DNA from: a virus
DNA length: 64,000 nucleotides
IMG/VR virus record: IMGVR_UViG_3300050015_000167
Location: 1-64,000 of that record
Direction: 5' to 3' (one strand)
The first letter of the stretch is position 1; the number at the start of each line of letters is the position of its first letter. Shown here piece after piece: positions 10,718 to 49,607 of the stretch. The notes under the pieces are model-generated. The model worked only from the letters and a program-made list of their open reading frames with translations, was not told where the DNA came from and did no database searches. The translations under genes were made by a program, and so were the position numbers.

Positions 10718-10725
10718 TTGTCTCC

Positions 10726-16967: not shown

Positions 16968-16976
16968 AAAAATATA

Positions 16977-17498
16977 ATGTATATAATTTATAAGCATACA
17001 AATATCGTTTCTGGAAAATCGTATATAGGATATACAAATAAAACTATAGAAGAAAGATGGAAAATTCATTTACAACGTTCAAAAAATAATTATAAATGGA
17101 AATTCGATAAGGCTCTACGAAAGTATCCAGAAAATTCTTGGAATCATGAAATTTTATGTGAATGTGATACTTTAAAAGAAGCTAATCAAAAAGAAATTGA
17201 AATGATTTCCGTATATAAATCATATAAATATGGTTATAATTCTACATTAGGTGGAGATGGTGGTAGAACTAAAGGAATGACCGGTAAGAAACATTCGGAA
17301 AAAACTAAAGAAAAAATGAGAAGGTCTCGTTTAGGAAAGAAACTTTCTAAAGAAACGAAAAAGAAAATATCATTATCTTGTAAAGGAAAAATAGGTCATC
17401 CAATGTCGTCAGAACATAAAGCTAAATTATTATTATGTCATCTTGGTAAAGATTTAAAAAATAAAAAATTAGCTAAAGGATGTGTCTATGCTCGGTAA
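16977..17498 (+). CDS. GIY-YIG homing endonuclease with NUMOD3-like repeats
   Basis: MYIIYKHTNIVSGKSYIGYTNKTIEERWKIH; inserted between g14-like and g15. Confidence 0.85.
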   Translation: MYIIYKHTNIVSGKSYIGYTNKTIEERWKIHLQRSKNNYKWKFDKALRKYPENSWNHEILCECDTLKEANQKEIEMISVYKSYKYGYNSTLGGDGGRTKGMTGKKHSEKTKEKMRRSRLGKKLSKETKKKISLSCKGKIGHPMSSEHKAKLLLCHLGKDLKNKKLAKGCVYAR

Positions 17499-19948: not shown

Positions 19949-21763
19949 ATGGCTAATCCAAATACTCCAGTATATCCGAGTGCTCTTGCTACCGATTTGA
20001 ATTTAAAAGTCGTTACCGATAATGCTTTTTCTCCATTAGCTGCCGGTATTGATGGAGTAGTCACCGATATACCTTTTAATACCAATACTGTTTTTACATT
20101 CCCTTGTCTCATTGCTTTAGAGAATGAAATTATCTTGGCCGTTGGACCTATTGTTGGTATCAATATTACAAATTGTCAAAGAGGATATATTGGTAGTGCT
20201 GTTCCTCATGCGATGAATGTTGTAGGATTTGCTTATATCTTTAGTGACAATATCAATCAGATAACAGCCGAAATTAAAGCTATTGAGACCGCTTTAGGGG
20301 TAAATTTAGGTAATGTTGTTACTCCAAGTACGGCAGCCGGTGGTGATCTCGTAGGATTTTATCCTAACCCAACATTAGCAGCAACCGCAGTTACACCAAA
20401 TATATATGGTGATAATACCCATATTCCTGTAATTACTGTTGACCAAAAAGGACGCATAACAAATGTAAACCCTGTTCTTATTGGCGGCGCAACTGGTCCC
20501 ACAGGTTATACAGGGTATACTGGTTCTGCTGGTCCTACAGGATATACTGGGTTCACTGGCCCGGGTAATTTTACAGGTCCTACTGGTTATACAGGTCCTA
20601 CTGGTTATACAGGAGATACTGGTCCAGGTAACTTTACGGGTTATACAGGTTATACTGGATTTACAGGTTCAACTGGTTATACTGGTCCTATGGGATCTAC
20701 AGGACCAGGTAACTTTACAGGTTACACTGGTTATACAGGTTACACTGGACCAGCAATCACAGGCCCTACCGGTTATACGGGTTACACAGGAGCAGGAAAC
20801 TTTACTGGATATACAGGACCTACTGGATATACTGGTTTCACTGGTGCCACAGGTCCTGTAGGATATACAGGTGCTACAGGTTTTACTGGATATACGGGGA
20901 TGGGTTCAACCGGACCCACTGGTCCCGGTAACTTTACAGGATATACTGGTCCTACTGGTTTTACAGGTTATACGGGTGCGACAGGATTTACTGGTCCGGG
21001 TAACTTTACTGGATATACGGGACCTACAGGATATACAGGAGCTACTGGTTATACAGGTCCAGGTAACTTCACGGGATATACGGGTTACACCGGACCCACA
21101 GGATTCACTGGTCCTATAGGACCTACAGGTTATACAGGATTCACTGGCCCAGGTAACTTTACGGGATATACGGGTTATACTGGAGAAACTGGTCCTACGG
21201 GGTACACTGGTCCTGGAAACTTTACAGGACCTACAGGTTATACTGGTCCCGGTAATTTCACAGGATACACCGGACCAACAGGATATACCGGACCCGGTAA
21301 CTTTACAGGTTATACAGGATATACTGGTCCTAATGGACCTACAGGTGCGACCGGTTATACTGGTCCTATCGGTCCTACTGGAGCAACTGGTTATACTGGT
21401 CCTGGTAACTTTACAGGATATACGGGATATACGGGATATACAGGATATACTGGTCCAGGCAACTTTACCGGTTATACAGGATATACAGGACCTATTGGTC
21501 CCACGGGTTATACGGGGTACACTGGATATACTGGCCCTGGCGCAAGTTCATATGCGGTTCTTATTGGAGATGCTGCCGCAAGTACATTTACTGTTACTCA
21601 TAATTTGAATGCGGCGCATGTTTTTGTTTCGGTAAAAGATGCTACCTCAACATATCTTGTATTTCCAGATATTTCGATTACATCAAATAATGCTATTTCT
21701 GTAGCTTTTTCTATTATACCAACTCTTAACCAATATCTTGTTTCGGTTATAGGATTCGCATAA
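19949..21763 (+). CDS. collagen-like (G-X-T) fibre protein B
   Basis: Same N-domain, about 350 aa of G-X-T triplets with 13 GNFTG interruptions (about 20484-21540), about 70-aa C-terminal beta-rich domain. Confidence 0.85.
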
Positions 21764-36983: not shown

Positions 36984-38303
36984 ATGAGAGATTCAATGAC
37001 CACAGATAAATTGGTCGAAAAGTGGGCACCGGTTCTCGATGATGAGAATTTTGGCAAGTTGACTAATCGCCATAAACGCCGCGTAGTTGCGACAGTTATG
37101 GAAAATCAACAAGAAGAATATACAAAAACTCGCCAAATCTTGTCGGAAGCCGCTCCAACACTAAGTACTGGTGCTGGAATCGCTAATTTCGATCCAATCT
37201 TGATTTCATTAGTAAGACGTGCAATGCCCAATCTTATTGCGTATGATGTTTGCGGCGTTCAACCCATGGTTGGACCAACTGGCTTAATCTTCGCTATGAA
37301 GTCACGTTATACCAGCAAGACCGGTACAGAAGCTTTATTCAATGAAGCTGATACCGCGTTTACTGGTCAGACAGCAACAGCCCCAACAGCCGGTTTCGGT
37401 GGAACAGCCCATGCTGGTACGGATCCCGTATCTACTGGTTTCCCTCCAACTGCTTCTGGTTATACAACTGGTCGTCCTATGACAACCGGACAAGGTGAAG
37501 CTTTGGGAGATCAAGTTGGACCTGATTTCAACCAAATGGCATTCTCAATCGACAAGATTTCCGTTGAAGCAAAGACCCGCGCATTGAAAGCTGAGTATTC
37601 AGTTGAAGTTGCCCAAGATCTAAAAGCTATCCATGGTCTTGACGCTGAAACAGAATTAGCGAATATTCTTTCCGCTGAAATCTTAACCGAAATCAACCGG
37701 GAAATTATCCGTACCATTTACTTCATCGCCGTCCCTGGTGCAGCACAAACCACAGTTCCTGGCACATTCGACTTAGATGTTGACGCAAACGGTCGTTGGT
37801 CAGTTGAGAAGTTTAAGGGTTTGATGTTCCAAGTAGAACGCGAAGCCAATGCTATTGCAAAGGCAACCCGTCGTGGTAGAGGGAATGTTATCATCTGTTC
37901 ATCAGACGTTGCTAGTGCGCTAGTAATGGCTGGTAAATTAGATTATACTCCTGCTATCCAAAGTGACCTAACTGTTGACGATACTGGCAACACATTCGCT
38001 GGTGTTCTAAACGGACGTTTCAGAGTTTATATCGATCCTTACTTTGGTAATGGTGGTGTAAACGAAGAATTCTTATTGGTTGGCTATAAGGGTGCTAATG
38101 CGTATGATGCCGGTTTGTTCTATTGCCCATACGTTCCTCTACAGTTGTTTAGAGCACAAGATCCACATAGCTTCCAGCCAAAAATCGCATTTAAGACAAG
38201 ATATGCTGTTGCTCCAAATCCATTCTGGAGTGATGCTAATGCTACGCTTCAAGCGAATAGTTCCGCATATTACAGAATGATTAAAATCACTAATTTGTTA
38301 TAG
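36984..38303 (+). CDS. g23: major capsid protein g23
   Basis: LIAYDVCGVQPMVGPTGLIFAMKSRY signature of gp23; 439 aa; follows the scaffold gene. Confidence 0.9.
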   Translation: MRDSMTTDKLVEKWAPVLDDENFGKLTNRHKRRVVATVMENQQEEYTKTRQILSEAAPTLSTGAGIANFDPILISLVRRAMPNLIAYDVCGVQPMVGPTGLIFAMKSRYTSKTGTEALFNEADTAFTGQTATAPTAGFGGTAHAGTDPVSTGFPPTASGYTTGRPMTTGQGEALGDQVGPDFNQMAFSIDKISVEAKTRALKAEYSVEVAQDLKAIHGLDAETELANILSAEILTEINREIIRTIYFIAVPGAAQTTVPGTFDLDVDANGRWSVEKFKGLMFQVEREANAIAKATRRGRGNVIICSSDVASALVMAGKLDYTPAIQSDLTVDDTGNTFAGVLNGRFRVYIDPYFGNGGVNEEFLLVGYKGANAYDAGLFYCPYVPLQLFRAQDPHSFQPKIAFKTRYAVAPNPFWSDANATLQANSSAYYRMIKITNLL

Positions 38304-38336
38304 ATACAAAGAATTGTGGCTTAGTTTTAAACTCAA

Positions 38337-38365
38337 AAGGGAAATCGAAAGGTTTCCCTTTCTTT
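38337..38365 (+). terminator. rho-independent terminator after g23
   Basis: AAGGGAAA-8 nt-TTTCCCTT followed by TCTTT. Confidence 0.65.
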
Positions 38366-38391
38366 AGAAGCATCAAAAACTTAAAATTATC

Positions 38392-38426
38392 TTGACAACT
38401 TCGGACGACTGTGATATAATGGTCTC
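38392..38426 (+). promoter_or_regulatory. sigma70-like promoter, leaderless geometry, in the AT-rich backbone
   Basis: TTGACA 38392-38397; 17 bp; TGaTATAAT (-10 at 38415-38420); 6 nt; ATG 38427. Confidence 0.65.
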
Positions 38427-39344
38427 ATGATAGAAAATAAACCGTACACATACATTTACTATACTACTGATATGATTCCTTTTTATGTAGGAAAAGGGAC
38501 CGATAAACGAGCATATAAACATTTAACTGAATCTTTAGAAAAAACCAACAATCCAGAAAAAGTAAAAGAAATACAAAAAATTCTTGAATCTGGCAAAACA
38601 CCCATTATAAAAATAATGTATGCTGAAACCGAGTCTGAAGCCTTTGAATTAGAAGAATTTTTGACCTATCATTGGGGATTACGTCACAAAGGTGGAATTC
38701 TTACTAATATGCAATATGGTGGTGAAAATGGTAAATTTGTTGGTTTTGCTGATTTACCTAGAACACAAAAACATAAAAAGAAAATTAGTAAAGCAACCAA
38801 AAAATATAATAATTCTCATCCAGAAAAATGGGAAAAATTTACTAATCAACAGAAAAAAGAACCTAAATCTCCAAAAGCTTGTAAGAAAATGTCCGAAACT
38901 AAACTTAAATTGTATGCAGAACACCCGGAACTCCATCCCCGCCTTGGGAAACAACAATCAGAATATTCTATTCAAGTTTCAAGAGAAGTTAATTCTGGTA
39001 CATGGGAAATAACCTTCCCCGATCACCATAAAGAATTGATAACTAATTTGAAACTGTTTTGTAAAGAACATTCCATTAATCATGGAAATCTTGCAAACGG
39101 ATCTGCTGCTGGATATAAAGCAATCAATTTAAATCCCAATAAAAAGAAAGCCAAAACTCAATCAGCAAAAGACGCCATTTCTAATGCAAGATCATGTTCC
39201 TATCAAATTATTTTTCCTGATAACCACATTGAGATCATATCTAATCTTTCTAAATGGCGAGAAAACAATAATATCAAACGTGATAATTTAATGACACCAA
39301 AAGGTAATTCTCAAGGTTACCATGCCACAAAAATTGAATCCTAA
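38427..39344 (+). CDS. GIY-YIG family homing endonuclease (305 aa)
   Basis: YTYIYYTTDMIPFYVGKGTDKRAYKH...EAFELEEFL...LTNMQYGG. Confidence 0.7.
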   Translation: MIENKPYTYIYYTTDMIPFYVGKGTDKRAYKHLTESLEKTNNPEKVKEIQKILESGKTPIIKIMYAETESEAFELEEFLTYHWGLRHKGGILTNMQYGGENGKFVGFADLPRTQKHKKKISKATKKYNNSHPEKWEKFTNQQKKEPKSPKACKKMSETKLKLYAEHPELHPRLGKQQSEYSIQVSREVNSGTWEITFPDHHKELITNLKLFCKEHSINHGNLANGSAAGYKAINLNPNKKKAKTQSAKDAISNARSCSYQIIFPDNHIEIISNLSKWRENNNIKRDNLMTPKGNSQGYHATKIES

Positions 39345-39350
39345 AGTACC

Positions 39351-39358
39351 CTAAATAC
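39351..39358 (+). promoter_or_regulatory. CTAAATAC motif 4 nt before the start codon
   Basis: GTACCCTAAATAC-TAAC-ATG 39363. Confidence 0.3.
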
Positions 39359-39362
39359 TAAC

Positions 39363-39575
39363 ATGCCAATAGATATCATTCACGGAAAAGGTTATAGAAT
39401 TGGAGAATCTGATAGAATAATCGGAGATTCTACTGCTGACCCAGAAGGTTTTATAGTTCTTAATCAACAAAATGGTAAATTATTTCTTGTTGCTGGTGGT
39501 ATATGGACTGATGGTGGAACTTTTTCTAATGCCAATTTTACTCAAGAATATTTTGATACCTGGATTTTAAGTTAA
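39363..39575 (+). CDS. small protein, N-terminal paralog of 39585..40031
   Basis: GKGYRIGESDRIIGDSTADPEGFIVLNQ versus PKYRIGNSGRIIGSSAVPPEGFILLNL. Confidence 0.55.
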   Translation: MPIDIIHGKGYRIGESDRIIGDSTADPEGFIVLNQQNGKLFLVAGGIWTDGGTFSNANFTQEYFDTWILS

Positions 39576-39584
39576 AGGACAATT

Positions 39585-40031
39585 ATGTCAGTTTCAGCAT
39601 ATCGTATACCAAAATACCGTATAGGAAATTCAGGAAGAATTATTGGTTCTTCTGCGGTTCCTCCAGAAGGATTTATATTACTGAATTTGAGTGATAATAA
39701 TTGTTATATTGTTTCTGGAGGATTATGGACAACTCTCGATATAATTCCTAATCCTATAGTAATAGTTTTTAATTTATCATCAAATGTTTCTAGTCAAAGT
39801 GTTTTTACTTTTTATGTTGATCCTATTTCTGGTTCAGATTCAAATACTGGGTTAACAAAATATGATGCATGGTTGACAACAGAACATTCAGATTTACAAA
39901 TTTTACTTCCAGGACAAACCATAGGTTATTTACAATCTGGTTCCTGGGTTCTTTACCGGACACTAAATATGACCGTAGATCAAACAAATATGACCGCAGA
40001 TAATATGACGGCTGGAGCTAATCAATTCTAA
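39585..40031 (+). CDS. hypothetical protein (148 aa), paralog of 39363..39575
   Basis: Shared N-terminal 50 aa. Confidence 0.55.
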   Translation: MSVSAYRIPKYRIGNSGRIIGSSAVPPEGFILLNLSDNNCYIVSGGLWTTLDIIPNPIVIVFNLSSNVSSQSVFTFYVDPISGSDSNTGLTKYDAWLTTEHSDLQILLPGQTIGYLQSGSWVLYRTLNMTVDQTNMTADNMTAGANQF

Positions 40032-40032
40032 T

Positions 40033-40830
40033 ATGAAAACACTATTTCTTTCTCTATTTCTTTGTGTTGGGTTATTTGGACAGATAGTTAATATACCTAC
40101 TAATATAGGAATTAAAAATCTTCCTGGTGCTATTAATTCTAATTATTCAACCACATCACAATTTATATCTGGCACCTCTATACCATTATCTTGTGTCTCT
40201 ACCTCTAATATAGCATTTTATAAAACGGATAGCAAGGCATATTATGATTGTATTAATAATTTGTATCTCCTAAGAATTAATGCTGATGCGTCAGGTAACG
40301 TATCGGTGGGGGCTACGGTGCTTGGCCCAAAGACCATCGGGGCGGGGGCAAACCAACTCCCAGCAGCGGCAACCTGTACGCGCTGCATGACGATGGTTAC
40401 TGATGCGGCGAGCGCCTCCGATTGCACCGTTGGATCAGGCAGCAGCATAGCGGTCTGTTATTCGAACGGTACGTTGTGGGGGCCACTGGGCGCGGGTGCT
40501 ACCCCCGTGCCCACTCCCAGCACCACCATCACTCTCACAGCGCCACGCGGGTACGCGATCTGTACTGGCACATGCACGGTGACTTTGCCCGTGCCAGCGG
40601 CCGGTTACGAATTCTGCGTTATGAACGACGACGCCGTGGCGACGGCGATCACTCTTGCCGCTCTCGGGTCTGGTGCCATGTATGAGAACGCGATTCGCAC
40701 GGCGTATGGAACGCCGGGGACTGGGACTATGGTGCTTGCGGCTGCACAAGGGAATGCTATGTGCCTCGTGGGTAGAGATGTCACTCACTACCTGACGGTT
40801 TCGTACACCGGCTCTCCAACGGTGAACTAA
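40033..40830 (+). CDS. mosaic exported protein: AT-rich 5' part (signal peptide + about 85 aa) fused in frame to a GC-rich Cys/Gly/Thr-rich C-domain
   Basis: MKTLFLSLFLCVGLFGQ signal peptide. Composition switches at about 40285-40300 inside the ORF without a frame break. Confidence 0.7.
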   Translation: MKTLFLSLFLCVGLFGQIVNIPTNIGIKNLPGAINSNYSTTSQFISGTSIPLSCVSTSNIAFYKTDSKAYYDCINNLYLLRINADASGNVSVGATVLGPKTIGAGANQLPAAATCTRCMTMVTDAASASDCTVGSGSSIAVCYSNGTLWGPLGAGATPVPTPSTTITLTAPRGYAICTGTCTVTLPVPAAGYEFCVMNDDAVATAITLAALGSGAMYENAIRTAYGTPGTGTMVLAAAQGNAMCLVGRDVTHYLTVSYTGSPTVN

Positions 40831-40831
40831 C

Positions 40832-42058
40832 ATGAGACGCTTACTCATCGGATTTCTGGCGATTTCGCTGTTCGGGCAATCGCTGATGAAGATTGTTAAC
40901 CAGGGCGATCCGAAGGCCTCCTGGTATACCACCCACACCACCGGGTTTGCCCCCGTGTACTCAAAAACTGGGAGCACGCTTATTTGGGCGTGGCCGGATG
41001 GGACTTTCGATAGCAGCAATTCTCCTACGAAAACTCTCGCATCCGGAACGAAGCGCGTTGAGGTCCAATCGCAGGATGGATTTGGTGCTGTAACGGCTAT
41101 CGATGTTAACTCGATGGATCTCACGGGGAGCATCCCCTCGCTGTCGGCCAACACGGCGCTGACGGTCTTCGACGCGCACGGCAACCAGCTCACGGGGAGC
41201 ATCCCCTCGCTGTCGGCCAACACGGCGCTGACGGTCTTCGACGCGGGCGGCAACCAGCTCACGGGGAGCATCCCCTCGCTGTCGGCCAACACGGCGCTGT
41301 CGTACTTCGACGCGGGCGGCAACCAGCTCACGGGGAGCATCCCCTCGCTGTCGGCCAACACGGCGCTGACGGTCTTCTACGCGCACGGCAACCAGCTCAC
41401 GGGGAGCATCCCCTCGCTGTCGGCCAACACGGCGCTGACGGTCTTCTACGCGCACGGCAACCAGCTCACGGGGAGCATCCCCTCGCTGTCGGCCAACACG
41501 GCGCTGTCGTACTTCTACGCGGGCGGCAACCAGCTCACGGGGAGCATCCCCTCGCTGTCGGCCAACACGGCGCTGACGGTCTTCTACGCGGGCGGCAACC
41601 AGCTCACGGGGAGCATCCCCTCGCTGTCGGCCAACACGGCGCTGACGGTCTTCTACGCGCACGGCAACCAGCTCACGGGGAGCATCCCCTCGCTGTCGGC
41701 CAACACGGCGCTGACGGTCTTCTACGCGGGCGGCAACCAGCTCACGGGGAGCATCCCCTCGCTGTCGGCCAACACGGCGCTGACGGTCTTCTACGCGGGC
41801 GGCAACCAGCTCACGGGCTCAATCCCCGGCAGTTTTGCGACTCAACAGACTTTGGCGAATCTGGATATATCGACTAATGCCCTCCCATCCTCCGACATCG
41901 ATCAGATTCTCGCGGATCTGGTGGTAAGTCTGAGTATCAGTGGCCGTGTGGTGTGCGATGTGGAATTGGGCGGTGGGACTAATGGACCACCAACGGGCCA
42001 GGGCATCACGGACAAGGCCACTCTTATCGCAGGCGGGTGGACGGTGGTGACCAATTGA
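40832..42058 (+). CDS. leucine-rich-repeat protein with signal peptide
   Basis: MRRLLIGFLAISLFGQ, then ten 23-aa units GNQLTGSIPSLSANTAL[TV/SY]F[DY]A[HG] (N.L.G.IP..L LRR signature). Confidence 0.8.
   Translation: MRRLLIGFLAISLFGQSLMKIVNQGDPKASWYTTHTTGFAPVYSKTGSTLIWAWPDGTFDSSNSPTKTLASGTKRVEVQSQDGFGAVTAIDVNSMDLTGSIPSLSANTALTVFDAHGNQLTGSIPSLSANTALTVFDAGGNQLTGSIPSLSANTALSYFDAGGNQLTGSIPSLSANTALTVFYAHGNQLTGSIPSLSANTALTVFYAHGNQLTGSIPSLSANTALSYFYAGGNQLTGSIPSLSANTALTVFYAGGNQLTGSIPSLSANTALTVFYAHGNQLTGSIPSLSANTALTVFYAGGNQLTGSIPSLSANTALTVFYAGGNQLTGSIPGSFATQQTLANLDISTNALPSSDIDQILADLVVSLSISGRVVCDVELGGGTNGPPTGQGITDKATLIAGGWTVVTN
41117..41820. repeat. 69-bp tandem repeat, about 10 near-identical copies
   Basis: GGCAACCAGCTCACGGGGAGCATCCCC... 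recurs at 41180, 41249, 41318, 41387, 41456, 41525, 41594, 41663, 41732 and 41801. Confidence 0.9.
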
Positions 42059-42453
42059 GACGCACGCTGCCCTGGATCATCGTCGCTGGGTTGTTCTGCC
42101 TATTGATGTCCCCATACCTTCGGGCGCAGGAGAAGCCCACGAGCATCTGGTGGGTACACGGGGCCGTGGTCGCTCATATGATGAGTGCCACTCAGGACGG
42201 ATTGTCAAGCTGGAAACAGTCGGAGGCGAACCCGATCTACACCACTCAGGCAGGTCCGCAGGCGGGGCATTTCTACCGCACTGGCGCGGGCAGGATGACG
42301 GCGTCAACGCTCAGTGTGGTGGCGGTGAGTGAAGTCGTCGCGCATTTCAAACCGGGCTGGAAAAAGTACATCGCTGCTCTCAATTTCGGCGCAGCCACGG
42401 CGCACGTCGGAGTCACGGCAAGCAACGTGGTTCGCAATCCTTACTACAGGTAA
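42055..42453 (+). CDS. exported or membrane protein (132 aa)
   Basis: TTG 42055 overlaps the TGA of the LRR gene (ORF track start GTG 42037). N-terminus MRRTLPWIIVAGLFCLLMSPYLRAQE. Confidence 0.5.
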   Translation: MRRTLPWIIVAGLFCLLMSPYLRAQEKPTSIWWVHGAVVAHMMSATQDGLSSWKQSEANPIYTTQAGPQAGHFYRTGAGRMTASTLSVVAVSEVVAHFKPGWKKYIAALNFGAATAHVGVTASNVVRNPYYR

Positions 42454-42536
42454 CGTATTTAATCGCGGTTTTTGCTATGGAAATTCTCCACAATTCGGAA
42501 AGCAGGGGCAGCGCAAGAGGCCCCGCCCCGCTCGGG

Positions 42537-43562
42537 TCACAGGTACGACGGCGCGTGCTGGCGGTAGTCTGCGGTGTGGGCGTGCTGGCTGCGATGAACG
42601 TAAATCATCGTGCTCTGCACGTAGACGTGGCCGAGCTGGTCCTTGATGGTCAGCATGTGGGCTCCCCTGTTTGCCATGTTGGTGGCGAGCGAGTGGCGCA
42701 TCAGGTGTGGCCAGACGCGGCGGTCAATGCCCGCCCGCTTGGCCAGGACTCGCACGATCTTACGCACGTCCTGCGATTGCAGTTGATGGCCGTGGCGCTT
42801 CGTGACGAACAGCAGGTCATCGGGCATCAGGGTCTTTCCCTTGGTAGTCAGTTGAGCCTTTCGCCAAGCGAGGTACTCTTCGAGCAACCCCAGGCACTCT
42901 CCGGTTACGGCGGCGTCCCGTTGCTTGTTGAATTTGCATTCCTCCATGCGGAGGATGCCGTTGGGGATGTCAATGTCACGGATGCGGAGGTTGCAAAGCT
43001 CGTTGTTCCGAATTCCCGAATAGGCCATCGTGGAGATGAGCGCCTTCTCGCGGATGCTTGTCGTCGAGTGCAGGAGGATTGCCACCTCGGCTTCCGTCAA
43101 TGTAACAGGGACGCTGTTGGTTCGCTTCGGTGGCCGCATCAGATCGATGGGGTTGCCGATGTACTCGCAAAAGCGTTCCATCGTGCTGCACATGATCGAA
43201 ATATAGCCGGGGGAGTTCTTGCCGTCCGAGCGCATGAGCGCGATGAACGATTCCAGATCGCCGTGGGAAGGATTGCTCCCGATCAGCGGATGGGCGCGGC
43301 GCAGCACGCCAAGGTAGAGCGCGGCTGTCCGGTTGTTGACTTTGCAGTGAGTGTACAGGTACGTCTCGAAACTACTCAGGAGACGCTTGCATTCTTCGGA
43401 AACAGGGGTAGACTTTTGTTTAGCCATTGTGGCCCGCTCCAACGGGCTGGTGGTCAGAGCCGCCGCTTGACTGCGAATCTTGCGGTGGCTCGATTCCCAC
43501 TCTACCCCAATTGGCAACGTTCCACCACGGTTGATCGTTGCTTCCAGTACCAACATGGTCAT
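42537..43562 (-). CDS. tyrosine recombinase / integrase (XerC/D-like), GC-rich copy
   Basis: AYSGIRNNELCNLR...HLMRHSLATNMANRGAHMLTIKDQLGHVYVQSTMIYVH carries the R...HxxR...Y catalytic pattern. Confidence 0.85.
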   Translation of the reverse strand: MTMLVLEATINRGGTLPIGVEWESSHRKIRSQAAALTTSPLERATMAKQKSTPVSEECKRLLSSFETYLYTHCKVNNRTAALYLGVLRRAHPLIGSNPSHGDLESFIALMRSDGKNSPGYISIMCSTMERFCEYIGNPIDLMRPPKRTNSVPVTLTEAEVAILLHSTTSIREKALISTMAYSGIRNNELCNLRIRDIDIPNGILRMEECKFNKQRDAAVTGECLGLLEEYLAWRKAQLTTKGKTLMPDDLLFVTKRHGHQLQSQDVRKIVRVLAKRAGIDRRVWPHLMRHSLATNMANRGAHMLTIKDQLGHVYVQSTMIYVHRSQHAHTADYRQHAPSYL

Positions 43563-43631
43563 GGGGTACGCCCATGGTCGAAAGTTTAGGCAACGGTCTT
43601 ACTGTTTTACGTTACTTGTAAATAATATTAC

Positions 43632-43688
43632 TTGACAACACAAGAGAATCTGTAGTATTGTAGGATTATGACTACTACAGATTCTCTT
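43632..43688 (+). promoter_or_regulatory. promoter plus 16-bp perfect inverted repeat bracketing the recombinase start
   Basis: TTGACA 43632-43637; 18 bp; TATTGT 43656-43661; 6 nt; ATG 43668. Inverted repeat AAGAGAATCTGTAGTA 43642-43657 / TACTACAGATTCTCTT 43673-43688. Confidence 0.6.
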
Positions 43689-44503
43689 AAATCATTTGAA
43701 ACCTTTCTTTACGTTACTTTAGGATTAGCAGAAACACCACCGATGGTTATACTAATGTTATTAAACGCGCATTACCTTTTATTGGTGATAATTTTACCAT
43801 TGATAATGTAAATCACTATATAATGAATCTTAGGAAAAATAACAAAACCTCTTCGTATATTCAAAATATTTGTGTATCTTTAGAAAGATATGGAGAATTT
43901 ATTGGTATTCCTATTAAATTAGGGCGACCTAAAAAATCAAATCAAATATTAAAATCTCCATTATCTGAAGCTGAAATAACAATAATTATAGAAGCAACTA
44001 AAAATATTAGAGAAAAATCAATTTTATCTCTATTAGCATATTCTGGAATAAGAAATCAAGAATTGTGTTCTTTAAGGATCAGAAATTTAAATTTAGCCCA
44101 ACAATCTGTATTTGTCGAAAATGGAAAAGGACATAAATCTAGGTTAGTTTTTATTTCTGGAAATTGTTGCGAATTATTACAAAAATACTTGCATACCACT
44201 CGTATCGATATTAGTCCAGATGAATTGTTATTTCTAACCTTGCGTAATAATTTACCATTAGAACCACAGGATTTGCGTAAAATAATCAAAACTGTTGCAA
44301 AAAGAACTAAAATCACCAAAAGGATTCATCCTCATCTTTTTCGTCATAGTTTAGCAACAAACATGCTTAATAGAGGAGCAAATCTTATGACTATTAAAGA
44401 ACAATTAGGACATAAGTATATTGAAACTACAATGATTTATATTCATAGTACCCAACAAAGAGTCCAGGCAGAATATCGCATGTTTACACCAAGTTACATG
44501 TAA
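43668..44503 (+). pseudogene. AT-rich paralog of the tyrosine recombinase, needing a -1 frameshift near 43725-43740
   Basis: 43668-43811 (MTTTDSLKSFETFLY...) and the frame of 43823..44503 align consecutively with the GC-rich copy. C-part HLFRHSLATNMLNRGANLMTIKEQLGHKYIETTMIYIH is intact. Confidence 0.6.
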
Positions 44504-44569
44504 ACATAAATAAGGAAATATATCAACCTTCGGTCATACCAAAGGTTATTACGCAAACAAAGTAACACC

Positions 44570-44577
44570 CTAAATAC
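44570..44577 (+). promoter_or_regulatory. CTAAATAC motif upstream of the glycosyltransferase gene
   Basis: ACACCCTAAATAC, 8 nt before ATG 44586. Confidence 0.25.
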
Positions 44578-44585
44578 TAGTACCA

Positions 44586-45662
44586 ATGAAACCAAACAAA
44601 CTTAAAATTCTTACAGTTTTTAAAAATCCTCAAATCGATGAACCAACAGCATGTCACCAAGGATTAGGTGTCACTGCTACACGATTAACTTTAGCTTTCA
44701 AATCTTTAGGTTTAGATGCTGATTGTTTTCCTGTTAAAAATGGAGAATACTTGTGGCAAAAATTATCTACAGATTGGAAAGAATATAATCATGTAATTTT
44801 ATGTGCACCTTTTATTGATGCAACCTTTCTTAAAAAACTATTTTCCTTTTTTAAAAATAAAAAATTTGCTTTGATATATCATTCTAATTTAGGATTTTTA
44901 ACTCAAGATAGATTTGCTGTATTATCCCTTGGTTTATATTTTGAATTAGAAGAATCTTGTCCTAATTTTAGAATAGCTACTAATTGTTTGGAATTTTCTA
45001 AAAGTATCGAACAAGCAACGGGTAAAAAATTTTTATATTTACCTAATTTATTTCCTCTTCCTAATAAAATGCCCTCAAAACATTTTATTTGGACACACAA
45101 ACATACATTAAATATTGGATTATTTGGGGCGGCCCGCATTTTGAAAAATTGGTTAACTGCTGGTGTGGCTACCATGATAATTTCAAAAACATTACAAGCG
45201 GAAACATTTTTACATATTAATACGTCTAGAGATGAAAATGCAGGTAATCTGAGAGAAAATTTAAGAAGTTTAATAGATTTAAATCCTCATGTGCATATTA
45301 TTGAAGTTCCTTGGTTAGGACATGAAAAATTTCTAGAATATTTACCAAAATTAGATTTATTGATGCAACCAAGTTTTACAGAGACATTTAATAATGTTAC
45401 CGCTGAAGGTGTTTCTTGTACTGTTCCTAGTGTTGTTTCCGATGCTATTGTATGGGCTCCTGAAAATTGGAAAGCTAGATCAGATAGTGCTACTGATGTT
45501 GCACGAGTAGGATTAAACTTACTTCATGATTCTGATTCTTACAAAAATGGTTGGAAAAAACTCAAAGATTATAATGAAAAAGCTATTGAGGAATGGTTTA
45601 AATGGTTTGAAATTAAAAAAGATTGTAATTTTTGGAATAAATTAACAGGTTGGTTATCCTAA
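44586..45662 (+). CDS. GT-B fold glycosyltransferase (GT1/GT4-like)
   Basis: LLMQPSFTETFNNVTAEGVSCTVPSVVSD matches the PS..E.fg....EA...G.PvV region of GT-B enzymes. Confidence 0.55.
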   Translation: MKPNKLKILTVFKNPQIDEPTACHQGLGVTATRLTLAFKSLGLDADCFPVKNGEYLWQKLSTDWKEYNHVILCAPFIDATFLKKLFSFFKNKKFALIYHSNLGFLTQDRFAVLSLGLYFELEESCPNFRIATNCLEFSKSIEQATGKKFLYLPNLFPLPNKMPSKHFIWTHKHTLNIGLFGAARILKNWLTAGVATMIISKTLQAETFLHINTSRDENAGNLRENLRSLIDLNPHVHIIEVPWLGHEKFLEYLPKLDLLMQPSFTETFNNVTAEGVSCTVPSVVSDAIVWAPENWKARSDSATDVARVGLNLLHDSDSYKNGWKKLKDYNEKAIEEWFKWFEIKKDCNFWNKLTGWLS

Positions 45663-45666
45663 TTTC

Positions 45667-46257
45667 ATGAGCCAAATCTTTACAAATGAATCACAGAACC
45701 TCGGAGCCTTTAATAGGCAACAAAAGAATGTAAATCCTCTTCTACCGAATAAATTTACATTTTTCTTGACTAAATTACCAGAATTGTCTATGGCAGCTAA
45801 AAGTTCTAATATTCCTGGTATTTCATTACCAAGTTTTAAACAAGTCACCAGTTTGAACCCTATTCCACGTAGTGGATTAAATCTAACATTTGAAGCATTA
45901 GAAATCACATTTATTGTAGATGAAGACCTTAATAATTGGTCCGAATTAGCCAATTGGATGCGATTGATGGCCATGGTAAAAACTGGTACAGATTACAGTG
46001 AAGTTAAAATTGAACAATTACAACCTGGTCCGGAAGGTGGTTTAGTATCAGATGCTCAATTGGTAATTTTAACAAATGAATCTGTACCTAATATTGTGTT
46101 TTTCTTTAGGGATGCATTTCCAGTATATTTGAGTGAATTACGTTTAACTAACGATACTTCTACTCCAGTACCTTTAGAAGCAACCGTACGTTTCGAATAT
46201 ACTTACTATGATTTTTCTTCAATTAATCCAGAATTGGAACCTGATAATAACGTCTAA
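45667..46257 (+). CDS. gp19-family tail tube-associated protein, g3-like by position
   Basis: NKFTFFLTKLP...SSNIPGISLP parallels PNLFQIVLRFP...SSSIPADKI of the tube gene. Sits before uvsY, as g3 does in marine T4-like phages. Confidence 0.5.
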   Translation: MSQIFTNESQNLGAFNRQQKNVNPLLPNKFTFFLTKLPELSMAAKSSNIPGISLPSFKQVTSLNPIPRSGLNLTFEALEITFIVDEDLNNWSELANWMRLMAMVKTGTDYSEVKIEQLQPGPEGGLVSDAQLVILTNESVPNIVFFFRDAFPVYLSELRLTNDTSTPVPLEATVRFEYTYYDFSSINPELEPDNNV

Positions 46258-46284
46258 AGGCTATATTATGGAAAGGATTTTACA

Positions 46285-46713
46285 GTGACATTACAGGAAT
46301 TACAAGATAAAGTAAAAAAAGATTTGAAAATCCAACATGATGAATTGGTTTATGAAGCAGTAAGAACTCCGGATATACATCATGAATATAATCGAATGTT
46401 AATGACCGAAAAATTAGCATTAAAGAAATTAGAACGCGATTGGGATATTCTTTATCTCAAGCAATGGGAATATTATAGAAAAAAAGCTGATCCGGAAATC
46501 TATGAGAAGAAACCATTACTCAAAAAGATTATGGATACAGATGTCAAACTTTATCTTGCTGCGGATGAAGACTTATTGAATTTACGAGCGCATATGGATA
46601 GTAAGGAAGAACTTATTGATTTCCTAAAACGCACTATGGACCAAGTGGCACAAAGGACTTGGTTAATTAAAAACTCTGTGGATTATATGAGGTATTTAGG
46701 CGGAGAAAAGTAA
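46285..46713 (+). CDS. uvsY: recombination mediator UvsY
   Basis: 142 aa. MTLQELQDKVKKDLKI...YEA parallels T4 UvsY MRLEDLQEELKKDVFI...YEA. GTG start after GGAAAGGA. Confidence 0.6.
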   Translation: MTLQELQDKVKKDLKIQHDELVYEAVRTPDIHHEYNRMLMTEKLALKKLERDWDILYLKQWEYYRKKADPEIYEKKPLLKKIMDTDVKLYLAADEDLLNLRAHMDSKEELIDFLKRTMDQVAQRTWLIKNSVDYMRYLGGEK

Positions 46714-46726
46714 AACTTTTCAAATA

Positions 46727-46734
46727 CATAAATA
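46727..46734 (+). promoter_or_regulatory. late-promoter-like motif CATAAATA
   Basis: 22 nt before ATG 46756. Confidence 0.3.
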
Positions 46735-46755
46735 TGGTTTACAGGAGATCGGATA

Positions 46756-47112
46756 ATGATAGAACCAACATGTTACGATATTACCATACCAAAAGGTGCT
46801 ACCTACGATCAAACTTTCACATGGAAGGATGATTCGGGTAATATTTACGATTTAAGTTCATATACAGCAAGGATGCAAATCCGAGTTGCTATTAATGCAC
46901 CAGATCCTGCTGTAATTAATCTTACAACAGAAAATGGTGGTATTACCTTATCTGGAACAAATCCTAATATTTCTTTGTATATCAGTGATACAGATACTTC
47001 CGCAATTAAAATTTCGTCTGGATTTTATGATTTAGAACTTAAAGAACCAGATAATATCGTTATTCGTTTATTACAAGGAAAAGTTAAATTTTCTCCAGAG
47101 GTTACCAGATAA
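46756..47112 (+). CDS. hypothetical beta-rich protein (118 aa)
   Basis: AGGAG SD; ATGA-type coupling to the next fibre gene. Confidence 0.6.
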
Positions 47113-47804
47113 TGAGTTTATCTACAAATTTACAAAAAAATGTTATTGAAGTTCTTAAACCCATTCGTGTTGATTTGGTAGAAGTTGCTGTAAACGGACC
47201 TCAAGGACCAAAAGGACCTACAGGTTATACAGGATATACAGGATTCACTGGTCCTGGTAACTTTACTGGTTATACTGGTTATACAGGACCATTAGGACCT
47301 ATTGGACCTACAGGATATACTGGTTATACTGGACCGGGTAACTTTACTGGATATACAGGACCCACTGGTTATACAGGTTTCACTGGGCCGGCAGCGTCAT
47401 TAACAACCTCTACCGGAACATTAGGTGCTGATGTCACTATGACTACTGCGGGTACAGCATATGATGGACCTACAACTTCAGCACTTGCAACAGGAACATG
47501 GTTAATAATATCGCATGTAACTATAGATACTGCCGCAACTAATAGTTCACAAAATTTGACAGCTAAATTATGGAATGGAACTACTGTAATAGCTTCATGT
47601 GAAATGTCTACTCCTTCTGTTTCGGCACCTAATGATGTTGGTTATAGTACGATTACATTAGCTGGTATTGCAACTACTAATAATGATACCTGGCGAATAA
47701 CTTGTTTTACAACAAAAGCAAATTCTGTAATATTGCGAAACCCTGCTAATAGTAGTCCCGGTGCAAATAATGCAAGTCAAATTATAGCCGTTAAAATAGG
47801 GTAA
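47112..47804 (+). CDS. collagen-like (G-X-T) fibre protein C with about 135-aa globular C-domain
   Basis: [28 protein letters not shown]... about 47196-47390; 2 GNFTG interruptions. Confidence 0.8.
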
Positions 47805-47822
47805 ATATTCAAAGTTTACGCT

Positions 47823-47830
47823 CATAAATA
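47823..47830 (+). promoter_or_regulatory. late-promoter-like motif CATAAATA
   Basis: 14 nt before ATG 47844. Confidence 0.3.
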
Positions 47831-47843
47831 GATATAGAACATT

Positions 47844-49607
47844 ATGAGCGTAAACTTTTCAGTAGTTTTGATTTGCCGCAATGAGGCAAAAACACTTCCC
47901 CGTCTGTTAAAATCTTTGGAAGAATTTCAAAAGAAAGATGGAGAAGTTATCTTACTTGACACCGGTTCAACTGATAATACACCATCTATCGCAAGATCTC
48001 TTGGATGTAAAGTTACTGAAGTAGGTGAACGATTCCTAACAACAATTGATGAAGACTTGGCAGAAAAGATTAATACCAGGTTTGTAATCGAGAATGAACA
48101 ACCTATAGTCAAAGTAGGTGATAAACTCTTTGATTATTCCTCTGCCCGTAACTTTGCTGCCACTCTTTCCTCTAATGACATGTGTGCTATGCCTGATTGT
48201 GATGAGGCTTATACCATGTTAAACATTGATGCTATACAAAAAGTCATTGAACAAGGATGCGAACAATTAGAATATCATTTTGTGTTCTCTCATTATCCTG
48301 ATGGTTCACCAGCTATTCAATTTATGCATTCCAAGTTTTATAATCGCACCAAAATGAAGTGGGTTGGCGTAGTACATGAAGTACTTTCTGGTGACGCAAA
48401 ACGGATGTACCTTGACACTTCTATCATCAAATTAGAACATTGGCAAGAACCATCAGAGCACCGCTCTCGATATCTGACTGGATTAGCTCTGGATTGCTAT
48501 TTGAACCAAGAAAATGACAGAAATTCACATTATTTGGGTCGTGAGCTAGTTTGGACAGGTAGACACAAGTCCGGCATCAAAGAATTACAAAGGCACGTAG
48601 AAATGCGTAAATTTCCTATGGAACGCGCACAATCTATGATTTTCATTGGTGATGCTTATGAAATGCTTGGAGATGAGCAAAATGCTCTAAAATGGTACAA
48701 TCAGTCATTTTTAGATGATGGTACTCGTAGAGAACCACTTTTACGCATGGCACAACACTTTTGGAAGAAAAATGATGCTTTGAAAGTAGCATGTTATTGT
48801 GCGGCAGCAATGGAAATTGGTGAAGTCAGTTTCTATGCTAATTATGCCGCTCATTATACCTTTGAACCTCATGAATTGATGTACTGGGCAAAATGGTATC
48901 TTGGAGATAAAGAAGAATCTAAATTACATTGGGAAAAATGTCTTGCTTATACTCCTCTTTCTCCTAAATATTTACATGATGCCCGTTTCTATATTAAACT
49001 ACCCAAGGTGTCTATTGTAATTCCTACTCTCGGAAGAGAAGAAAAATTACAACGTTGTATTGATGCTATCAAGAAAAATGCTAATTATCCTGAAGAAGCC
49101 TATGAAATCATCGTTGAACATGATTCCTTTGAGACCAGACAAGGGGTTCCAAAGACTTTGAAGGCTGGAGTAGATAAAAGTACCGGTGAATTAGTCATGT
49201 TTCTTGGAAATGACTGTATTCCAGAAGAAAACTTCTTAATTCTTGCTGTATTGAGAATGTTAAAAGAATTCCCACGTTGTGGTGGTTTAATCGGTCTAAA
49301 TGACGGTCCTACCAATCAAACTGTAGCAAAACACTGGTTAGCCTCAAAAAACCTATTGAAACATTTGGATGGAGAATTTTTCTGTACCTTATATCATCAT
49401 GTCGGTTGCGATAATGAATTGACGGGACGGTGTCTGAAAATGTCTAAATATTATTGGTGTGAAGAGGCAAAGGTAAAACACGATCATTTTGTCAGTGGTG
49501 CTGAGTTTGATGATGTATATAAACTTGGATGGAATGAAAAGTGTGTTGCCGAGGACAGGAAACTCCTTGCTGAACGTGCCAAATTGTTAGACTTTGAGAT
49601 ATTATAA
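47844..49607 (+). CDS. double GT2 glycosyltransferase with central TPR-like region
   Basis: FSVVLICRNEAKTLPRLL...ILLDTGSTDNT at the N-terminus; VSIVIPTLGREEKLQRCIDAI...IIVEHDS at the C-terminus. Confidence 0.7.
   Translation: MSVNFSVVLICRNEAKTLPRLLKSLEEFQKKDGEVILLDTGSTDNTPSIARSLGCKVTEVGERFLTTIDEDLAEKINTRFVIENEQPIVKVGDKLFDYSSARNFAATLSSNDMCAMPDCDEAYTMLNIDAIQKVIEQGCEQLEYHFVFSHYPDGSPAIQFMHSKFYNRTKMKWVGVVHEVLSGDAKRMYLDTSIIKLEHWQEPSEHRSRYLTGLALDCYLNQENDRNSHYLGRELVWTGRHKSGIKELQRHVEMRKFPMERAQSMIFIGDAYEMLGDEQNALKWYNQSFLDDGTRREPLLRMAQHFWKKNDALKVACYCAAAMEIGEVSFYANYAAHYTFEPHELMYWAKWYLGDKEESKLHWEKCLAYTPLSPKYLHDARFYIKLPKVSIVIPTLGREEKLQRCIDAIKKNANYPEEAYEIIVEHDSFETRQGVPKTLKAGVDKSTGELVMFLGNDCIPEENFLILAVLRMLKEFPRCGGLIGLNDGPTNQTVAKHWLASKNLLKHLDGEFFCTLYHHVGCDNELTGRCLKMSKYYWCEEAKVKHDHFVSGAEFDDVYKLGWNEKCVAEDRKLLAERAKLLDFEIL

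Follow-up and report, generated by a model that had tools for sequence, protein, structure and literature searches.

The window analysed here is a 64-kb (64,000-nt) stretch of the IMG/VR virus record IMGVR_UViG_3300050015_000167, from an AT-rich T4-like phage. Its g23-like capsid gene, preceded by the T4 late-promoter motif TATAAATA at 36925, and its g3-like gene bracket a variable interval whose features are collected in Table 1. A perfect TTGACA-17-TATAAT promoter-like site (38392-38420) lies between the capsid gene and the homing-endonuclease-like gene. The two small paralogues that follow have homologues (64% and 50% identity) in the closest relative, contig L122, in the same order and ahead of an array of signal-peptide genes. 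Within the interval lies a GC-rich island, and further GC-rich stretches occur elsewhere in the window. All the ORFs assigned to this block in an earlier note are present, including the leftward recombinase ORF at 42537-43562 (-).

Table 1. Features of the interval between the g23-like and g3-like genes (window coordinates).
Feature	Position	Strand	Remarks
Major capsid protein, g23-like, left anchor	36984..38303	+	tblastn 58-60% to Melnitz, Pelagibacter and cyanomyovirus capsid proteins
GIY-YIG homing-endonuclease-like gene	38427..39344	+	PF22945, E 4e-9
Two small AT-rich paralogues, 70 aa and 148 aa	39363..40031	+	Travel with exported-protein cassette
Hybrid ORF, 265 aa	40033..40830	+	AT-rich resident leader fused in frame to GC-rich fibre-like C-terminal part
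Site A, CAGGTAACGTAT	40292..40303	+	At left junction; read in frame as S-G-N-V
Leucine-rich-repeat (LRR) protein with signal peptide, GC-rich	40832..42058	+	PF12799, E 3e-29; PF00560, E 2e-24
p132, small exported or membrane helical protein	42055..42453 (ORF 42037/42055)	+	16 homologues
Site B, second exact CAGGTAACGTAT	42447..42458	+	Overlaps p132 stop codon, cargo/integrase-module boundary
GC-rich Xer-like tyrosine recombinase, 296 aa (probable start), apparently intact	42537..43427	-	PF00589, E 7e-33
Conserved non-coding region upstream of GC-rich recombinase, island's right end	43428..43598	-	Similarity to contig L113
Site C, CAAGTAACGTAA, 10/12 inverted copy of the 12-mer	43607..43618	-	9 nt outside right junction
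Perfect palindrome, 16-nt arms and 15-nt spacer	43642..43688	.	Inverted repeat I5; unique in window
Resident AT-rich Xer-like recombinase	43668..44503	+	PF00589, E 1e-39; 45% identical to GC-rich recombinase
Site D, AAAGTAACGTAA, 9/12 copy	43709..43720	-	In AT-rich recombinase just before frameshift
Glycosyltransferase-like gene	44586..45662	+	Weak PF13692 match; 52-60% identity to relatives' copies
g3-like gene, right anchor	45667..46257	+	69-76% identity to relatives' copies

The GC content of 300-nt segments rises from 0.30 at 40000-40299 to 0.64 at 40300-40599, stays at 0.55-0.69 up to 43599 and falls back to 0.28 at 43600-43899, with the right border at 43598/9. At 45-nt resolution the left-hand switch occurs between 40273 (0.51) and 40288 (0.62). 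The in-frame left border described earlier is thereby sharpened to 40288-40297, inside the hybrid ORF, where GC goes from about 30% to 64%, and the island extends over about 40290-43598 (3.3 kb). GC3 changes within that single ORF, from 0.16 (40033-40296) to 0.66 (40297-40830); it is 0.83 in the LRR gene, 0.74 in p132 and 0.78 in the GC-rich recombinase as opposed to 0.17 in its AT-rich homologue, so that island values of 0.66-0.83 face values of 0.13-0.34 in phage genes.

The resident leader of the hybrid ORF consists of a signal peptide and a small N-terminal domain and reaches to about 40291; a 37-aa match of 51% identity links its N-terminus to that of a chimeric 843-aa ORF in L122. Residues ~88-265 are 92% identical to P0001, a GC-rich protein of 357 aa, and the donor's own reading frame is kept across the junction, which falls at a domain boundary. 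In an AlphaFold2 model the N-terminal 160 residues have low confidence, and residues about 160-265 form a beta-sandwich with pLDDT above 90. This predicted structure matches the N-terminal region of phage CBA120 TSP4 (E 4e-4), the Pa223 capsid spike and 58 viral models annotated as fibre, collagen or Mtd; as modelled, the domain fused on at the C-terminus is a beta-sandwich of the phage fibre/spike type. It belongs to an unnamed family of ~105 aa with 149 homologues at E <= 1e-3 (60-82% identity in the domain; 10 columns invariant, 37 nearly invariant), whose signature, PRGYAxCT..CTV..P.PAAGYEFC..NDD..ENxxRTxYGT..HYLT, is present in the hybrid ORF. All family members have signal-peptide-like N-termini, and members with the same kind of N-terminus occur inside a P22/SU10-like structural module.

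Downstream, the LRR gene is a member of the leucine-rich repeat proteins by its Pfam matches; it contains about 12 tandem 69-nt (23-aa) units that are 93-98% identical, a count taken from the window's assembly alone. Searches of p132 against Pfam, PHROG and NCBIfam gave no match; its AlphaFold2 model, a signal helix plus three helices, had no significant Foldseek match. A 69% identical copy of p132 occurs on a circularly permuted element (about 13.2 kb, 69% GC).

The two recombinases lie head-to-head, one at the right end of the island and the other just outside it. Both belong to PF00589 (114 bits for the GC-rich and 136 bits for the AT-rich protein, against a cut-off of 27) and show the motifs HLMRHS/HLFRHS, LGH and MIYVH/MIYIH. 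Their scores fall below the NCBIfam cut-offs for XerA (166 and 182 vs 220 bits), XerC (129 and 145 vs 335) and XerD (125 and 138 vs 330); judged by sequence, both resemble Xer proteins in size and architecture without belonging to them. Integron integrase models were likewise rejected (TIGR02249/NF011946: 84 and 98 vs 265, 53 and 57 vs 435), and a repeat scan found no attC-like structured repeats. Homologues of the GC-rich recombinase, 70-94% identical and encoded on GC-rich contigs, are 286-296 aa long; the true start of the ORF proposed earlier is probably the ATG at 43427 (MAKQKST...). With this start, 43428-43598 becomes conserved non-coding DNA. Identity to L113 is about 90% here, against 79.5% for the match as a whole; an 11-nt indel relative to L113 shows that the region cannot be coding, and tRNA and Rfam searches gave no match to it. 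The AT-rich recombinase has a 1-nt frameshift near 43728, in its N-terminal domain, with an in-frame remainder at 43823-44503; the frameshifted sequence is the same in two further contigs, L002 and L003. The palindrome overlaps both its start codon and a promoter-like site (43632-43661).

Parts of the island recur at 98.5-100% identity in independent GC-rich contigs assembled from other samples. One of them, L004, comes from another run and has 55-65% GC throughout. Its identity to the island is 98.5% over 40297-40835 and 99.4% beyond 40324; here the same C-terminal part belongs to a full-length GC-rich gene, that of P0001, whose GC-rich N-terminus is a different one, and the LRR gene that comes next has the same start (first 36 aa identical). 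Another, L129, a scaffold labelled WOOD18, matches 41905-43417 at 100% identity. These identities, together with the absence of the block from relatives, show that it is foreign and recently acquired, and they uphold the earlier proposal of a recent modular swap that placed a foreign C-terminal domain and cargo on a resident N-terminus. Among 185,579 species genomes the conserved C-terminal domain was found only in Acidobacteriota MAGs, and it occurs in 23 IMG/VR contigs, all of 51-63% GC. Homologues of the integrase converge with variable spike/fibre-like cargo in GC-rich contigs, so the suggestion that the recombinase accompanied the swap is also supported: the same integrase module faces variable terminal cargo genes in these relatives. 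Donors of this type are P22-like temperate phages or elements of Acidobacteriota whose terminal cargo genes converge on an Xer-like integrase. We infer that the host is an acidobacterium, against which stands the unusually large gap between a 33%-GC phage and a 56-62%-GC host.

Related phages confirm the 7.2-kb insertion between g23 and g3 described earlier. In three relatives with capsid proteins 83-87% identical, g23 lies directly beside g3, 78-128 bp away; the interval is empty in L012 and L093/L094 and holds the glycosyltransferase-like gene as its sole gene in L091/L092. Across six relatives (capsid proteins 83-90% identical) the gap ranges from 78 bp to 14 kb, which marks the locus as a plastic (hypervariable) region in the sense used for T4-like genomes. 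The 14-kb interval belongs to L122 (capsid 90%), which carries an independent island of its own, 5.4 kb long and GC-rich, likewise joined in frame to a homologous N-terminus of AT-rich composition. The locus is thus a hot spot, with an independent, parallel in-frame swap in a sister phage.

The module boundaries are marked by a short repeat. The exact 12-mer CAGGTAACGTAT occurs only twice in the window, at sites A and B; CARGTAACGTA with at most one mismatch has 7 matches against 1.5 expected, a number that 0 of 100 shuffles reached, and such a motif is shared by 0.1% of random window triples. Homology at DNA level between the integrase module and contigs L112 and L113 stops at site B, a boundary defined after the motif had been noticed, and in both contigs a 12-mer-related sequence likewise lies across a stop codon, there of a different cargo gene. 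The donor-like L004 already has, at the corresponding place in the coding sequence, a degenerate 12-mer (CAGGGAAC-AAT-GTAG), so the A/B match could partly reflect coding conservation and chance. The exact direct repeats flank the cargo only: sites A and C are inverted relative to each other, site B remains intact between cargo and integrase, and no single simple attP x attB event yields this order. We looked for an excised circle or an empty site and found neither. The 12-mer at module boundaries suggests integrase-mediated recombination, short of proof.

Taken together, we favour, at a probability of roughly 60%, the reading that the island is a captured piece of a GC-rich Acidobacteriota-type element, joined by site-specific recombination of the integrase family, in a phage with an acidobacterial host and with products that act at the surface. 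The captured piece comprises the 3' part of a fibre-like gene, the LRR gene, the small helical membrane/exported protein and the Xer-like integrase with its conserved flank, and it sits in the hypervariable g23-g3 locus. At its left end the reading frame runs, across a domain boundary, from the 5' part of a resident exported-protein gene into the captured DNA; the resident part supplies the signal peptide and small N-terminal domain, so that the phage now makes the hybrid protein and two foreign exported proteins. The joints would be made by this integrase family at CAGGTAACGTAT-like sites. Direct repeats A and B around 2.15 kb of cargo are what integration of a circle would leave, and the corresponding 2.15-kb circle would carry the junction p132 end - CAGGTAACGTAT - CGGTGGGG.

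A tentative competitor, for which we see an appreciable but distinctly smaller chance, makes the integrase a passenger on the captured fragment. Here T4-type general recombination would use short stretches of similar sequence shared by the resident fibre-like gene and a prophage in the same cell or a co-infecting phage, in-frame products would be selected, and the 12-mer matches would be microhomologies or coincidence. In T4-like phages, plastic regions and mosaic fibre genes are reportedly well known. This phage encodes UvsY, next after the g3-like gene (PF11056, precomputed annotation), and a homing endonuclease gene adjoins the locus. The sister island contains neither a recombinase nor the 12-mer motif, so the integrase is not required for such a capture. 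The AT-rich part of the L122 chimera has stretches of 36-63 aa in common with GC-rich phage fibre-like genes (56-67% identical), so homeologous crossover points exist, and 5 of the 8 mismatches to L004 cluster in 27 nt beside the junction, as in a heteroduplex patch. Such recombination, however, leaves unexplained why the island's end and a motif copy lie just 9 nt apart, beside a homologous resident integrase. It must also account for the repeat itself: two of the three module boundaries carry the 12-mer exactly and the remaining one has a 10/12 copy, for which the chance is roughly 1e-3 or less, and in unrelated GC-rich contigs integrase-module homology ends at the same element.

A mis-join of an AT-rich phage and a GC-rich genome during metagenome assembly is very improbable. 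All evidence comes from assemblies, the junctions being supported by contigs and not reads; the two supporting samples may be related, and the near-identical 69-nt LRR repeats at 41150-41787 are spanned by the window contig alone. Against this, a second assembler recovered both junctions at 100% identity in Logan contigs of run SRR35915826 (L001, window 37932-41149; L002, 41788-48500), and the right one is also present, again at 100% identity, in a JGI contig from sample 3300050020 (L003, 42678-45391). The same phage lies on both sides with the gene order of its relatives, the fusion keeps the donor's frame at a domain boundary, and a like junction occurs on a 180-kb contig from another sample. 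The island is a real feature and a form of the mosaicism known from phages.

We give just as little credit to a phase-variable receptor-binding protein whose C-terminal segments are flipped or exchanged by the recombinase within one genome, as in the R64 shufflon, where the tyrosine recombinase Rci acts and sfx sites lie inside pilV. The locus resembles it in having a tyrosine recombinase beside a gene for an exported adhesin-like protein, with a short, site-like in-frame repeat at the boundary between constant N-terminal and variable C-terminal parts, and with inverted copies C and D on the other side. Yet alternative segments are absent: the opposite strand holds only the recombinase, and the locus does not qualify as a shufflon. 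Nor are the sites placed for productive inversion, since recombining A with B, C or D would lead to a stop codon 2-6 codons past the site, and the variable part is compositionally foreign, imported from another genome and 98-100% identical to other genomes' DNA. An ancestral block whose GC content is imposed by protein composition, plausible in so far as Gly, Ala and Thr abound in the fibre-like and LRR proteins, is ruled out by the GC3 values, which differ even between the homologous recombinases, by the block's absence from all relatives and by near-identical DNA within GC-rich flanks elsewhere.

T4-like phages are said to have mosaic tail-fibre or receptor-binding genes and plastic regions in which a conserved N-terminal part is combined with an exchanged C-terminal part. 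The present case is similar in its joint at module boundaries and in its variable locus, which has conserved core genes on either side and homing endonuclease genes close by. It differs in that the exchanged segment derives from a genome of very different type (a 30-point GC gap), the proteins have Sec-type signal peptides, the locus is g23-g3 and not the tail-fibre cluster, and an integrase travelled with the cargo. Lambdoid phages reportedly carry morons, and P22 the order tailspike - conversion genes - attP - int. Like morons, the island is a discrete block of deviating composition between conserved genes, and like P22 the donor lineage has terminal late genes and cargo that converge on an integrase, separated from it by a short conserved site. 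By contrast, the island's first gene lacks its own start and can be expressed only as a fusion, and the recipient is a T4-like phage, a type that to our knowledge does not integrate. Integron cassettes and the Xer-dependent pdif modules of Acinetobacter plasmids share short sites at gene-module borders beside an Xer/integron-like tyrosine recombinase and direct repeats around promoter-less cargo; the present locus differs in having no attC-like folded site, integrase scores far below the integron cut-offs, 12-mers without the 11-6-11 dif layout and a single observed cargo unit.

Where the products act can be read from two sides. Sec-type N-termini, together with twin-arginine signals on some neighbouring genes in the GC-rich phages, point to the envelope, and the fibre/spike fold of the C-terminal domain and its family's position in a P22/SU10-like structural module point to the virion. 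Because the island is joined in frame to the resident 5' part, the phage makes a hybrid protein with a foreign beta-sandwich C-terminus, and the island products may bind or remodel the host cell surface.

The composition step at the island is a sharp and real feature. In 300-nt windows, GC content rises from 0.30 at 40000-40299 to 0.64 at 40300-40599, stays at 0.55-0.69 up to 43599, and falls to 0.28 at 43600-43899. At 45-nt resolution the left switch lies between 40273 and 40288, inside the ORF at 40033-40830 (the hybrid ORF), whose frame is unchanged across it. All island ORFs listed in the earlier note were found in the window; GC3 values for these and the surrounding phage genes are collected in the table. 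The leftward recombinase was indeed present, but its proposed start at 43562 had to be corrected: because its homologues are only 286-296 aa long, translation probably begins at the ATG at 43427, and 43428-43598 is probably non-coding sequence upstream of it. The window itself belongs to an environmental T4-like myovirus, with a capsid protein at most 60% identical to that of any GenBank phage, a T4 late-promoter motif preceding g23, and UvsY following the g3-like gene.

Features of the island and its surroundings, with GC3 for coding segments and sequence matches for the repeated 12-mer
Feature	Position	Strand	GC3	Sequence	Remark
Hybrid ORF, resident 5' part	40033-40296		0.16		
Hybrid ORF, 3' part	40297-40830		0.66		
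LRR gene	40832-42058		0.83		
p132, small exported protein	42055-42453		0.74		
Leftward recombinase, GC-rich	42537-43427		0.78		start probable
Recombinase homologue, AT-rich	43668-44503	+	0.17		directly right of island
Phage genes around island			0.13-0.34		
Site A	40292-40303	+		CAGGTAACGTAT, exact	left junction, in frame S-G-N-V
Site B	42447-42458	+		CAGGTAACGTAT, exact	overlaps p132 stop codon
Site C	43607-43618	-		CAAGTAACGTAA, 10/12	9 nt outside right junction
Site D	43709-43720	-		AAAGTAACGTAA, 9/12	within 5' end of AT-rich recombinase

We compared assemblies, rather than reads, across the junctions, locating the relevant contigs by exact-protein look-up. Logan contigs from run SRR35915826 cover window positions 37932-41149 and 41788-48500, and a JGI contig from sample 3300050020 covers 42678-45391, all at 100% identity, so each junction is reproduced by at least one other assembly. 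Both flanks of the island belong to the same phage, with the gene order seen in its relatives. Both Logan contigs stop inside the near-identical 69-nt LRR repeats (41120-41970; 93-98% identical to each other); the LRR repeat number, and formally also the link between the two island halves, come from the window assembly alone. The repeat number may vary in the population.

The interval between g23 and g3 proved to be variable across IMG/VR relatives whose capsid proteins are 83-90% identical. It measures 78-128 bp and holds no gene in L012 and L093/L094, carries only a glycosyltransferase-like gene in L091/L092 and two unrelated genes in L115, and reaches ~14 kb in the closest relative, the sister phage L011/L122 (a 180-kb contig). 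The content of this locus thus varies where an ancestral block would be uniformly placed, and the mosaic swap proposed in the earlier note stands. The 14 kb of L122 (IMGVR_UViG_3300050015_000276) consist, in order, of homing-endonuclease-like genes and the glycosyltransferase-like gene, homologues of the small AT-rich paralogues p70 and p148, five AT-rich signal-peptide proteins, and an 843-aa ORF whose N-terminus, MKSFLLIFCAFSLWGQIVDLPNNIPVKNIP, shares homology with the N-terminus of ORF 40033 in the window. This ORF passes in frame from ~45% to 70% GC within 15 nt at ~11825 and opens, within L122 10987-17130, a 5.4-kb island of 57-69% GC that ends directly before g3. The cargo differs from that of the window (253-aa and 952-aa proteins, both with signal peptides), the 5.4-kb island holds no recombinase, and the window and L122 junctions share no motif beyond chance-level 7-mers. 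The L122 island is a second, independent capture at the same locus. Genes upstream in L011 (e.g. 16846-18108) contain internal stretches of 48-55% GC, suggestive of earlier exchanges. A metagenome scan with the p70/p148 alignment returned one weak match.

Homology marks the island as foreign and recently acquired, with its origin in GC-rich genomes. The hybrid protein has 149 homologues, nearly all of which align with its last 105-110 residues alone (60-82% identity). The best, the 357-aa protein P0001, is 92% identical over hybrid residues ~88-265 and has a GC-rich N-terminal region and signal peptide of its own. P0001 is encoded on L004, a contig from a different run with 55-65% GC along its whole length. 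Window 40297-40835 is 98.5% identical to L004, and the LRR gene that follows is the same in both. Of the eight mismatches, five fall within 40299-40323, and identity downstream is 99.4%. A further contig, L129, with a scaffold name (WOOD18) that we take to denote a Stordalen Mire sample, is 100% identical to window 41905-43417. When L004 1671-1757 is set against window 40830-40835, L004 has 106 extra nt between the fibre-like and LRR genes, bounded by a 15-nt direct repeat, GGTGAAYTAACATGA; judged from this alignment, the window looks like the product of a deletion between L004-type 15-nt repeats that left the genes 1 nt apart.

Among GTDB species genomes, the conserved C-terminal domain of the hybrid protein was found in Acidobacteriota MAGs only. 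It is also present in 23 IMG/VR viral contigs, all of 51-63% GC and none of them T4-like. The GenBank phages yielded neither a protein match to this domain nor a DNA match to the locus, and the island had no match in PLSDB plasmids. Two family members sit inside a P22-coat/SU10-adaptor/gp10-like structural module on a 30-kb contig of 61% GC, and on other GC-rich viral contigs a member lies within an array of large proteins with Sec-type, sometimes twin-arginine, signals. In the GC-rich viral contigs L139 (5894-14320) and L145 (6892-17035, with a twin-arginine signal at 10348-11205), the structural genes are likewise followed by arrays of very large proteins, of up to 1474 aa, bearing Sec-type signals; the members of this class that we tested are not annotated in Pfam, PHROG or NCBIfam. 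The GC-rich recombinase has relatives (70-94% identical) on GC-rich contigs, where their genes are convergent with those of large, variable proteins bearing signal peptides. In L113 this protein is 747 aa long; in L112 and a 12-kb ENA contig the proteins have SGNH/GDSL domains, and the ENA contig also encodes an RNase T-like exonuclease and a faint tail-needle match. P22-like temperate phages place their terminal late genes and cargo before a site and a leftward int, and the donor-type gene order has this same layout. A ~13.2-kb GC-rich (69%) element, probably a small plasmid or phage-like in nature, was recovered as circularly permuted contigs (L130/L131/L132) from several samples; besides a p132 homologue (69% identical) it carries a DUF5681 protein, a different integrase of 336 aa and numerous small ORFs.

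The AT-rich recombinase homologue beside the island is 45% identical to the GC-rich one. Its first 19 codons, from 43668, lie in another frame, with one base missing in a GAAAC run near 43728, and the frameshift sequence is identical in both other assemblies. A perfect palindrome with 16-nt arms (43642-57/43673-88) overlaps its promoter-like site and start codon. This gene was not found at the g23-g3 locus of any relative examined. In size and best matches the two recombinases resemble Xer proteins, and they score under the XerA, XerC, XerD and integron-integrase cut-offs; an IMG/VR search gave no close relative of either. We found no tRNA-linked att site in the window or the integrase-bearing loci, no long direct or inverted repeats flanking the island, and only a chance-level Rfam match over it. 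A 19-nt inverted repeat (39337-55/43708-26) was rejected as chance level, since a rough hand estimate puts the expectation at ~3 such pairs for a region of this length.

A repeated 12-mer (sites A-D in the table) lies near the module boundaries, and its exact form occurs twice in the 64-kb window, at A and B. The DNA-level match between the integrase module and L112 and L113 stops exactly at site B, a boundary set after the motif had been seen; related elements in L113 (TAGGCAACATAA) and L112 (TAGGCACTGTAT) each overlap the stop codon of a different cargo gene. A search for CARGTAACGTA with at most one mismatch gave 7 matches against 1.5 expected, a count that 0 of 100 shuffles reached. In simulations, random pairs of 41-nt windows had an exact 11-mer in common in 0.2% of cases, and random triples had one in common, allowing up to one mismatch, in 0.1%. 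Sites A and B form direct repeats around the 2.15-kb cargo, which matches what circle integration leaves behind, and B and C flank the integrase module as inverted copies. Such an integration would predict an empty site reading GATGCGT-CAGGTAACGTAT-TTTAATCGCGG and a cargo-circle junction reading CCTTACTA-CAGGTAACGTAT-CGGTGGGGGC. Integrase-mediated joining is the more likely mechanism, albeit unproven, and we word it with caution because boundary B was defined post hoc, L004 has a degenerate form of the 12-mer at the coding position that site A occupies here, the observed site order does not follow from any single simple att event, and the sister L122 island has no such motif. No convincing copy of the motif was seen downstream of the AT-rich integrase, and an exact search of IMG/VR with the p132 end plus core sequence gave no match.

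An AlphaFold2 model of the hybrid protein (121 sequences) is confident for residues ~160-265 only, which form a beta-sandwich. This domain matches the N-terminal region of CBA120 tailspike 4 (E 4e-4), the Pa223 capsid spike, a tailspike depolymerase and 58 viral models, several of them annotated as side tail fibre, collagen-like or Mtd-like. The LRR protein consists of ~12 nearly identical 23-residue repeats. The p132 model shows a signal helix and a three-helix bundle, with no significant Foldseek match and no detectable relatives of known function; Pfam, PHROGs and NCBIfam did not assign a function to the hybrid protein, to p132 or to the sister-island proteins. All three exported island proteins start with M-K/R, a hydrophobic run and G/A-Q, and the same signal-like N-termini recur in the sister AT-rich array proteins, the podovirus-module family members and chromosomal acidobacterial members. 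On our reading of these sequences and models, the island proteins may be surface-binding or surface-modifying, adapted to the acidobacterial envelope, and either virion-mounted or cell-exported. We infer a host among the Acidobacteriota because of the donor taxonomy, the common signal-peptide style and the repeated GC-rich captures; the phage-host GC gap, which would be unusually large, counts against it.

Elsewhere in this 33%-GC phage, window 1-1000 and 5000-11000 contain stretches of 50-64% GC with small ORFs, a paralogue pair (5352-5777, 9766-10221) and a protein (6690-7274) that has a signal peptide and ends in ...CYGQ; the stretches may represent further captures of foreign DNA. The tandem repeat at 38-466 encodes PEPSPYRTPPV-like units when read on one strand, and its opposite strand encodes an AEYNKVKA-like repeat. 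Before a GIY-YIG endonuclease gene lies a perfect sigma-70 consensus promoter (38392-38420); with an HNH endonuclease-like ORF (11543-11902) and a second GIY-YIG-like ORF (13883-14407), the phage thus carries several homing-endonuclease-like genes. A mismatch search also found the 12-mer CAGGTAACTTTA/CA four times in ~540 nt (20625-21161); it is unrelated to the island sites and is probably a repeat inside a gene.

The island belongs with known fibre-gene mosaicism, morons and the plastic regions of T4-like phages. A shufflon was rejected, as alternative segments are absent at the locus, and an integron was rejected on both integrase and sites. Unusual here are the size of the GC gap, a resident signal-peptide leader that was used in frame on two independent occasions, the presence in a T4-like phage of an imported integrase next to its decayed resident homologue, and the 12-mer at module borders. 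A more far-reaching reading, to which we give about one chance in seven, is that this presumably lytic T4-like lineage maintains an Xer-like integrase, with short core sites, to capture modules rather than for lysogeny: a leader ORF (signal peptide plus small domain) would end in an in-frame site that takes start-less C-terminal cassettes and cargo from other phages of the same host. Such an in-frame acquisition platform would combine features of shufflons and integrons, and through it a virulent phage would sample the surface-binding repertoire of temperate phages.

The island represents gene flow into a T4-like phage from temperate phages or elements of the Acidobacteriota type, over a GC difference of 30 points, with both borders mapped to ~10 bases and a second independent event at the same locus. 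The arrays of fibre-like, LRR and enzyme-like proteins with Sec/Tat signals are undescribed in Pfam, PHROGs and NCBIfam. No acidobacterial T4-like phage was present in the GenBank phage collection searched, and our literature searches turned up no description of such phages; the island offers a host assignment that can be tested for this uncultured lineage, which was seen in contigs with peat and lake sample labels. T4-like phages are regarded as strictly lytic. If the 12-nt sites are true crossover sites, a phage of this type would build hybrid exported or fibre proteins with a tyrosine recombinase, which would bear on the evolution of host range and surface interactions in soil viruses.
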